Source: Mustelus asterias
Lineage: Eukaryota
DNA length: 64,000 nt
NCBI RefSeq assembly: GCF_964213995.1
Contig: NC_135805.1
Coordinates: 41,726,001 to 41,790,000, forward strand
Direction of reading: 5' to 3'
The notes below the pieces were generated by a model. That model was not told the DNA's origin and made no database searches. It saw only the letters and a program-made list of their open reading frames with translations. The translations under genes were made by a program, and so were the position numbers. This document shows, one piece after another, positions 11,362 through 50,141 of the stretch (within the stretch, counting starts at the first letter, position 1; each line of letters starts with the position of its first letter).

Positions 11362-12012
11362 GGGCTGGATTTTATATGCCCCCGCCAGGCGTGTTTTTGG
11401 TAGGGGGTGTGCAGTCCTTCTATTACATTTAAATAAATAACCAAGTGTTAATTGAGCTGGTTAACAATCCAATTGATCCCAATTATACACTGCCCTTATC
11501 ATAATAAAAAACATTTTAAAACGGCAGGAAGGAAGGCTGGGGATGCCCTTTCTGCATCAAGGGGGAACCCCCCCTAAGATAGTACCCCTTTTCCTACCCA
11601 CCTGCTCACCAAAACCCACCACCATTGGCCTAGCCCTTCCTGTCCAATTTCCTGGACGTAGCTTGTTCTGGGATCCATTGGGCCCTCCTTTTCTGCTTGG
11701 AGTCCCGGCAGTGTCCACTAATGCACTGGTTTTTTTTGTATTTTTATTCCAATTCAATCATATCAAGTCCAATTCAGAGTCTCAACAAGTTGAGACATTC
11801 TTGATCTTAGCCAAAAGGCAATGCTGGGACTACTGGAGCTTCCAGGCCAATCAGATTGACTGGCAGCTCCTGAGGGCGAGACTTCTTCCCCAGTGAGGGG
11901 CACAAGGCCCACTGGCAGCCAGTTTAGCCTGCCCTCAGCACGTTGTGGCTGCAGGGCGAGTAGCATACATCATGTTGGCTTCATGCCAACATTGCTTCTA
12001 GAATCCCCTCCC
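11362..12012. mobile_element. Non-autonomous PIF/Harbinger-like element
   Basis: Starts GGGCTGGATTTT (terminal motif). The interior resembles 45259-45890 and 59766-60440. The right end is approximate. Confidence 0.55.
11730..11819 (-). mobile_element. Short U2-snRNA-headed retroposon with AATAAA and poly(A) tail
   Basis: Minus strand: GCCTTTTGGCTAAGATCAAG (U2 5' region) + aatgtctcaacttgttgagac...ggAATAAAaatacAAAAAAAA. Imperfect TSD aatgcactgg/aatgctgg. Confidence 0.75.
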
Positions 12013-12588: not shown

Positions 12589-12689
12589 AACCAAAAGAGA
12601 AAATGCTGGAAGATCTCAGCAGGTCTGGCAGCATCTGTAAGGAGAGAAAAGAGCTGGCGTTTTGAGTCCAGATGACCCTTTGTCAAAGC
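12589..12689 (-). mobile_element. Single arm of the short HHR-bearing Penelope-derived element
   Basis: Homologous to the left arm of 31838-32031; flanked by CATGAAT(C/T)TGTC at 12574-12585 and 12689-12700. Confidence 0.8.
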
Positions 12690-31797: not shown

Positions 31798-32035
31798 AAA
31801 ATAAAAGCAAATGACTGCGGATGCTGGAATCTGGAACCAAAAGAGAAAATGCTGGAAAATCTCAGCAGGTCAGGCAGCATCTGTAAGGAGAGAAAAGAGC
31901 TGATGTTTGGAGTCCAGACGACCCTTTGTCAAAGCTCTGACAAAGGGTCATCCAGACTCAAAACGTCAGCTCTTTTCTCCCCCTACAGATGCTGCCAGAT
32001 CTGCTGAGATTTTCCAGCATTTTCTCTTTTGATGG
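31798..32035. mobile_element. Palindromic short Penelope-derived element with two back-to-back HHR motifs and a 13-bp TSD
   Basis: Inverted repeat 31838-32031 centred on AGCT (31933-31936); CAATAATCTGCAC at 31785-31797 and 32036-32048. Confidence 0.85.
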
Positions 32036-49821: not shown

Positions 49822-49861
49822 ATTGCTTCTTGGCCTTTAGGCTAAGATCAAGTGTATATCT
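49822..49861 (+). pseudogene. RNU2: U2 snRNA 5' fragment
   Basis: ATTGCTTCTTGGCCTTTAGGCTAAGATCAAGTGTA-TATCT versus U2 ATCGCTTCTCGGCCTTTTGGCTAAGATCAAGTGTAGTATCT. Confidence 0.9.
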
Positions 49862-50141
49862 GGTCATGCATTTGGTTGAAGCCAATGAGGTTACACTGAG
49901 GCTTCACTTGAAGCAATTTTTTAAAAAGCCATCTCGGCCTTTTGGCTAAGATGAAGCTCAGGTCAAGCCCGGGAGGGGCTCTAATGCTTCATCCTATCAG
50001 CTTGGATCTGGTTTGATCGAGCCCAGGACAGGAGTATGGAGTGTCTTGTCAGCTTAGATCTGTAATGTCTCTCATGTAGGAAATCTTTTCGGGCCAAATT
50101 GGATTTCTGATTGGAAATAAAGTACCAAAAGGTACAAAAAA
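49822..50141 (+). mobile_element. U2-headed composite retroposon (long form)
   Basis: U2 head, a second U2 motif at 49932-49952, two U2-stem-II-like motifs, a tail homologous to 11730-11799, AATAAA at 50116 and an A-rich end. Confidence 0.7.

Follow-up and report, generated by a model that had tools for sequence, protein, structure and literature searches.

In a 64,000-nucleotide stretch of Mustelus asterias DNA (contig NC_135805.1; hereafter the window), the segment at 49822..50141 begins like U2 snRNA and ends in an A-tail, raising the question of what kind of element it represents, which machinery copied it and which promoter supplied its RNA. We consider it likely that the locus holds an old, non-coding, A-tailed copy of a thousands-strong family composed of U2 and U4 sequence (and of U1 sequence in relatives). 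A Keno-like Tx1 LINE likely did the copying, and the RNA likely came from source copies that reside in U2 genes and use the U2 promoter. The features are listed below.

49822..50141, plus strand: whole SINEU-like composite retroposon of the old subfamily; its longest frame free of stops spans 52 codons
49822..49865, plus strand: head, U2 snRNA nt 1 to ~45, leaving U2 near the Keno target position
49866..49887, plus strand: head-complementary segment, predicted long hairpin, kept across all subfamilies
49880..49902, plus strand: U4 snRNA nt 25-47 (5' stem-loop), 19/23 in the window copy, p=0.001
49901..49924, plus strand: short hairpin, then an A-A-U-tract that resembles the Sm site in the U4 gene of this genome (putative Sm site)
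49932..49956, plus strand: second U2 5' motif, U2 7-31 (stem I), 24/25; head of an older U2-derived core
49957..50010, plus strand: diverged repeat of U2 nt ~23-65 (first of two) that contains an insert and is predicted to form a hairpin
50011..50109, plus strand: second U2 repeat, continuing as decayed U2 sequence (nt 44-105; stems IIa/IIb, Sm-site region)
50116..50141, plus strand: 3' terminus with AATAAAGTA, a small hairpin and the A-tail; the Keno-like Tx1 LINE has AATAAAGTA at its 3' end too
11730..11819, minus strand: another member of the family, in which U2 12-31 is fused to the final ~70 nt of a younger subfamily, with an A-tail

U2, U4 and U1 ancestry of the family

Using the U2, U4 and U1 genes of the same genome as alignment references, we found that the head matches the genome's own U2 gene in 40 of 45 alignment columns (shuffle p=0.001), and an Rfam scan called U2 at 49822 with 44.6 bits (E 1.2e-5). 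The matches of 49822-49865, 49932-49956 and 50044-50109 to U2, the last of these aligning to U2 44-105, each exceeded 1,000 dinucleotide shuffles. The second U2 repeat was significant in the window copy as well as in the consensus (p=0.001 for both); for the first, p was 0.009 in the consensus and 0.23 in the window copy. The U2 5' end, the second U2 motif, the two U2 look-alike motifs (49993-50010 and 50045-50062), the AATAAA (50116) and the A-rich stretch that reaches 50141 all lie where the original prediction had placed them. Two of its descriptions hold in part: the segment of ~70 bp regarded as non-U2 is present but contains the U4 piece and folds back on the head, and the tail does carry AATAAA and an A-rich end, but most of it is decayed U2 nt 44-105. 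The suggestion that the U2-like motifs mimic the target is not supported, since they descend from U2 itself via a monomeric U2-derived family. The homology of the tail to 11730-11819, from which a family had been deduced, is real though distant (direct p=0.011; p=0.001 when the family consensus is used), the latter element being a 5'-cut copy of a younger subfamily with 96% identity over 53 nt to a young copy. The Rfam scan of the element found no match to tRNA, 5S or 7SL, and an internal T-run such as 49917-49922 would stop Pol III. Elsewhere in the window, 31848-32021 and 12589-12689 hold a long hairpin repeat that scored weakly against miRNA models and is probably a small inverted-repeat element.

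The piece at 49880..49902 derives from the U4 5' stem-loop, which presumably acts as a kink-turn in U4. Its match in the Rfam scan was weak (E=0.25 only), and in direct alignment the old consensus resembled U4 nt 21-47 at 22 of 27 positions (p=0.0002), with no significant likeness in the young subfamilies. Because the U4 likeness fades toward the young subfamilies, it points to ancestry and not to a constant need, and a maintained kink-turn function was rejected on this ground. Likewise rejected was the reading of this segment as a mere inverted U2 head, since it is U4, not antisense U2, that the earliest forms resemble. Of 30 old-3'-end loci, 23 were read by eye; eight of them carry a U1-like 5' part, each aligning to the genome's U1 with p=0.002. 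The consensus of these relatives, which share the old 3' end, matches U1 5-95 at 76 of 80 positions with an 11-base deletion and continues into U4 23-47 (23/25, p=0.0002), with no antisense-U2 signal, so that the U4 origin is real. In the U1-headed loci, Rfam scored U1 at no better than E=0.85, where direct alignment to the genome's U1 was significant. Individual U1-headed members (L300, L308, L314, L317 and L318, ~1150-1530 on the element strand) combine U1 5-95, U4 23-47 and U2 parts.

The bases before the U4 piece turned complementary to the head later, in U2-headed forms: the complementary segment is missing from the earliest U2-headed relatives, and the head-complement duplex is retained in every subfamily while the U4 likeness declines. 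The short hairpin that occupies 49901..49924 in the window copy is palindromically longer in young subfamilies. A monomeric U2-derived family (L015:1286-1495 on the minus strand, L029, L086, L188 and L206) comprises ~U2 1-155, carries an insert, has a new 3' end, is alignable to ~U2 nt 155 and, judged by its sequence, was likely the source of the element's 3' two-thirds.

Copy number, age and RNA fold

The element is shorter than 500 bp, non-coding and multi-copy. A search with the head-less body gave 3,036 candidates, 40 of which were scored, yielding 46 matches; among these matches, the best 39 other loci are 82-90% identical to the window copy. The idea of a single-copy body is thereby dismissed. 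Exact-pattern counts, all of them lower bounds, amounted to at least 5,949 copies of a non-U2 internal 19-mer, at least 3,719 of a 24-base head and at least 85 of the old 3' end, with zero for each reversed control. Among the 99 heads that come first on contig C1, 92 show the composite layout, the remaining seven being monomers, broken copies or LINE/U2 heads. No copy continues into an ORF among the 30 best old-subfamily loci and the 30 loci read of the 85 with the old 3' end, so the copies do not run into an ORF-bearing element, as had been considered at the outset. The 3' end, followed by a poly-A tail, is fixed, and target duplications measure 10-28 bp, occurring in 53 of 142 clusters as compared to 2 of 150 swapped controls. 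For the best old copies, after removal of five segmental duplicates, the figures are 6 of 25 versus 0 of 175 controls. The window copy itself has no convincing target duplication (best 7 bp, one mismatch, score 4).

A tree of 141 near-full copies is ladder-shaped: old subfamilies come first, then intermediate and finally young ones, and their terminal branches have medians of 0.058, 0.027 and 0.016, respectively. The window copy belongs to the old subfamily and is 94% identical to its consensus. In contigs from four sequencing runs with four labelled organisms, the depth of the family greatly exceeds that of the flank; three of the four runs contain a contig that joins the tail of the window copy to its flank by more than 31 bases, indicating that the window insertion predates the split of these three organisms. 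No empty site for the window locus was present in the contigs of the four runs.

The window copy folds with a z of -4.0, and the head-complement duplex (-35 to -43 kcal/mol) was, in all 10 tests, more stable than every one of 300 shuffles. We compared the substitutions between nine successive subfamily consensuses with the same substitutions placed at random, giving 16 tests, that is, eight steps in both directions, with the oldest step weak. With the head and the second U2 motif excluded, the subfamily substitutions preserved the fold (mean z -2.8; 13 of 16 tests at or below -1.64); with the head included, z was ~-3.2, and the head was left out since random changes could fall in a refreshed head. 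Private mutations of single copies (18 pooled sets) did not preserve the fold, with a mean z of -0.01. According to these models, the RNA fold is under selection. Against this stands the scarcity of two-sided compensatory pairs, 3 of 47, a value reached in 199 of 500 shuffles; most changes of paired bases run from G-C to G-U. Such selection would act on the source copies and keep the chain of hairpins, one of which would bury the stretch of U2 that reads the branch point; the fold may also aid RNA stability or recruitment of the reverse transcriptase.

The probable LINE partner and its target sites

The original prediction offered, as its first alternative, a U2-derived SINE mobilised by an L1/Tx1 machinery and suggested a search for an autonomous Tx1 or L1 element sharing one end. 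This alternative is supported, and such an element exists: a U2-headed Keno-like Tx1 LINE with the same last bases and the same tandem stacking, which is well supported as the partner of the SINE. In the U2 array on C24, this 5.3-kb LINE carries a U2 5-35 head and ends directly before U2 38; it inserts 37 nt into U2, at the Keno target. Pfam assigns its ORF1 to a ZCCHC3-like/zinc-knuckle protein and its ORF2 to an APE-RT-zf arrangement, the endonuclease domain being APE and not RLE. Copies with an intact 1135-aa ORF2 are present, and the LINE is dispersed and young, with 150 scored of 5,787 candidates at 94-100%. A homologue with 47% identity is named 'transposon TX1 uncharacterized 149 kDa protein', and the protein atlas search returned no clade name. 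The 3' motif of the LINE has at least 1,264 exact copies across Tx1-like families, and a U2-type head follows within 70 nt of a LINE 3' end in 7 of 45 cases. The terminal motif that would connect the SINE to Keno is short. The partner, together with the U4 and U1 parts and the insertions in U2 genes described below, goes beyond what had been predicted.

Several further loci concern this LINE group. At G000:C24:44.815-44.935 Mb (L089), an 8,035-bp unit containing an intact U2 and a LINE in a U2 gene is amplified ~15-fold, and the ORF2 of the amplified LINE has a stop and a frameshift. Each unit of the U1 gene array on C8 (L345-L356) holds a Keno-like fragment, and a SINE pair lies inside the ORF2 of an older Tx1-like copy (L030:509-1487).

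A consensus of 53 target sites revealed nothing past AA|T, and 41 dispersed targets exhibited no U2 likeness or register. Directly upstream of 14 of the 99 heads lies a SINE or LINE tail (SINE 12, LINE 2), and the target duplication is repeated between the stacked copies. In 11 of 11 pairs of different subfamily class the younger copy is the upstream one, 10 further pairs being of the same class; no signal emerged when the tandems were ordered by the length of their terminal branches (6 versus 7). Upstream stacking at the same nick also occurs before headless copies (L002, L017, L104, L138, L142, L203 and others), and some copies (L093, L121, L203) are inserted within an older head at ~U2 +30. 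New SINE and LINE copies re-insert at the same nick despite a target of AA|T only.

Copies in U2 genes, proposed transcription and rival explanations

Young and intermediate SINE copies are found at the exact target of the LINE, U2 +38. At 29 sites an A-run abuts U2 38-58 exactly; of these, 21 have a LINE tail (15 of them from one amplified array), one has neither tail and seven have a SINE tail, of which six are clear and one is a short tail-like piece. By rough estimate, chance would give far below one such junction, assuming a 3.7-Gb genome with ~10^4 copies and a few hundred U2 genes. One of the SINEs (L254) sits at U2 +38 in the C24 array. In the C21 array, a unit consists of spacer, a full SINE from U2 +1, the A-tail and U2 38-185, so that the first 37 U2 bases are replaced; this unit adjoins an intact U2 gene (175 bits), and full-length LINE copies in the same array share the arrangement of spacer, element from +1 and U2 38. 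The array (G000:C21:28.05-28.08 Mb) represents a second, divergent U2 type, 89% identical to the C24 type, with a 449-bp repeat and heavy LINE occupancy. The U2-array SINE copies are located at G000:C21 ~28,064,206-28,064,532 on the minus strand and at C24 ~43,063,900-43,064,200. Exact junctions of spacer and U2 +1 number 14: seven with SINE (two of which look like duplicates), three with LINE and four with U2. Furthermore, in the dispersed insertions L282, L285, L287 and L296/L297 the target duplications enclose array spacer plus SINE, so copies residing in the array acted as RNA templates. Inspection of 30 U1-gene loci revealed no SINE, and a comparison of two U2 upstream regions for a promoter element gave only short shared similarity near -60. 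The motif ATGCAAAT, which we take to be the octamer of snRNA enhancers, is present in 8 of 8 intermediate and young consensuses (~nt 115-140) and absent from both old ones; it lies ~200 bp before a downstream tandem head and may be there by chance.

Judged from these junctions, the family would be fed by U2-promoter transcripts. The U2 promoter would drive most transcripts, keeping the head near-identical to U2 as the inner U2 parts decay; the ORF2 protein of the LINE would then prime at the common terminal motif and A-tail, and insertion would occur mostly at loose AA|T sites. By descent, the old subfamily of the window copy may have worked likewise. We give about even chances to the more specific proposal of a SINE that lives in U2 genes, lands at U2 +38 by means of the LINE, has its head swapped for the first 37 bases of the gene, uses the snRNA promoter and maintains a selected U1/U2/U4 mosaic fold that hides splicing-active stretches.

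The same SINE and Tx1 partner might instead rely on read-through from assorted host promoters, with the head renewed by template switching onto U2 RNA, as is proposed for SINEU in the accessible text of Kojima 2015 (PMC4494074), and with the U2-gene copies as minor or dead ends. We regard this as possible, albeit unlikely. The added U2 pieces join variably (U2 6-48 in L287, 8-43 in L296, 12-47 in L285 and 12-31 in the second window element), array-resident SINE copies are 95-98% identical to their consensus and thus not demonstrated masters, the spacer-carrying retrocopies reflect read-through begun upstream of +1, and the U1-headed relatives need a route other than the U2 promoter; switching onto free U2 RNA would yield 5' ends at U2 +1 as well. 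However, within any one subfamily the point where head meets body is constant, and the ladder-shaped tree is as expected from few sources. Moreover, on contig C1, 35 of 99 heads, sampled for intact U2 nt 12-35, begin at U2 nt 1, a number that rises to 43 when nt 2 is allowed as the start, yet only one of these 43 has shared upstream sequence, namely the array spacer.

Alternatively, the old subfamily of the window copy could have been moved by another L1/Tx1-type LINE lacking U2 specificity, the Keno link then applying to the younger subfamilies only. No old-subfamily copy lies before U2 +38 or after array spacer (30 best loci and 30 read of 85), and several Tx1-like families carry the same terminal motif. 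We nevertheless consider this improbable, given that old copies end in the same AATAAAGTA terminus, have comparable target duplications and are likewise stacked upstream, and that old and young copies fall on one ladder. That the element is a fragment or an internally deleted form of a Keno or Utopia LINE is very improbable: a U2 1-35 head and the terminal motif are common to both, but beyond this head and ~10-15 terminal bases the SINE has no similarity to the 5.3-kb LINE, neither to ORF1/ORF2 coding sequence nor to UTRs, while its body aligns to U2 and U4 and lacks an ORF. The SINE itself is, by sequence, not Keno, and the non-autonomous Keno/Utopia derivative offered as second alternative by the original prediction is not supported by this result. 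Independent chimeric U2 pseudogenes, conceivable since snRNA retrocopies are common and weaker U4 retrocopies occur in this genome, can be practically discounted because junctions and diagnostic subfamily changes are shared across 141 copies.

By its features the family is a SINEU variant, likened to SINEU by description and not by SINEU sequence. According to the accessible text of Kojima 2015 (PMC4494074), SINEU-1, -2 and -3 are known from crocodilians, with none detected outside them; they target Mariner-N4 with Tx1-Mar as partner. As described there, SINEU shares with the present family U1/U2 heads that were repeatedly added, partial duplications, a poly-A tail, the lack of a known internal promoter, tandem copies sandwiching a target duplication and a Tx1 partner with a U2 head, and the monomeric U2 family resembles SINEU-3. 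The short non-coding poly-A form and the multi-copy shared structure agree as well, and a target preference shared with a Tx1 LINE is found in the young and intermediate subfamilies. In contrast to the SINEU so described, U2 genes at +38 are among the targets here, the partner itself is U2-targeting, and a U4 piece, a 3' half traceable to U2, last bases matching the LINE and a conserved fold are present. Keno is described, in the portions of PMC4494074, PMC4640811 and PMC6136364 available, as a U2-specific member of the Tx1 clade with an APE endonuclease, and its 3' target, 37 nt into U2, is printed in PMC6136364 and also described in PMC4640811. Like Keno as given there, the partner LINE has an APE domain and inserts before the printed target, whereas it is widely dispersed, has a U2 head of its own and seems to mobilise a SINE. 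Utopia, of the NeSL clade, uses the same U2 site and tandem insertion, with some lineages less specific (PMC4640811, available portion); the partner LINE resembles it in site and tandem insertion and differs in having APE where Utopia has RLE. As with R2 in 28S rDNA, in the available discussion in PMC4494074, the promoter would be taken from the target gene and the 5' target sequence is replaced by a homologous element head; unlike R2, which is autonomous and Pol I-driven, the present element is non-autonomous and sits in a Pol II snRNA gene. The literature search gave no shark or U4-bearing SINEU and none outside crocodilians; subscription papers, Repbase Reports or Repbase/Dfam entries may hold one. 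The accessible parts of PMC5499810, PMC7245038, PMC5786205, PMC5381603 and bioRxiv 10.1101/2025.02.02.635956 contain no such element.

How snRNA-headed SINEs without a promoter are transcribed is left open in the accessible text of Kojima 2015 (PMC4494074). A promoter borrowed from U2, if true, would explain the expression of promoter-less SINEU elements, and a SINE living in U2 genes, if true, would constitute an externally promoted, site-specific SINE/LINE pair. Named loci with the SINE at U2 +1, derived retrocopies and a young intact LINE make the question of SINEU transcription directly testable. Mustelus asterias also provides a second vertebrate genome that makes SINEs from spliceosomal RNAs, with U4 now included and with an RNA structure that, by our fold models, is under selection.
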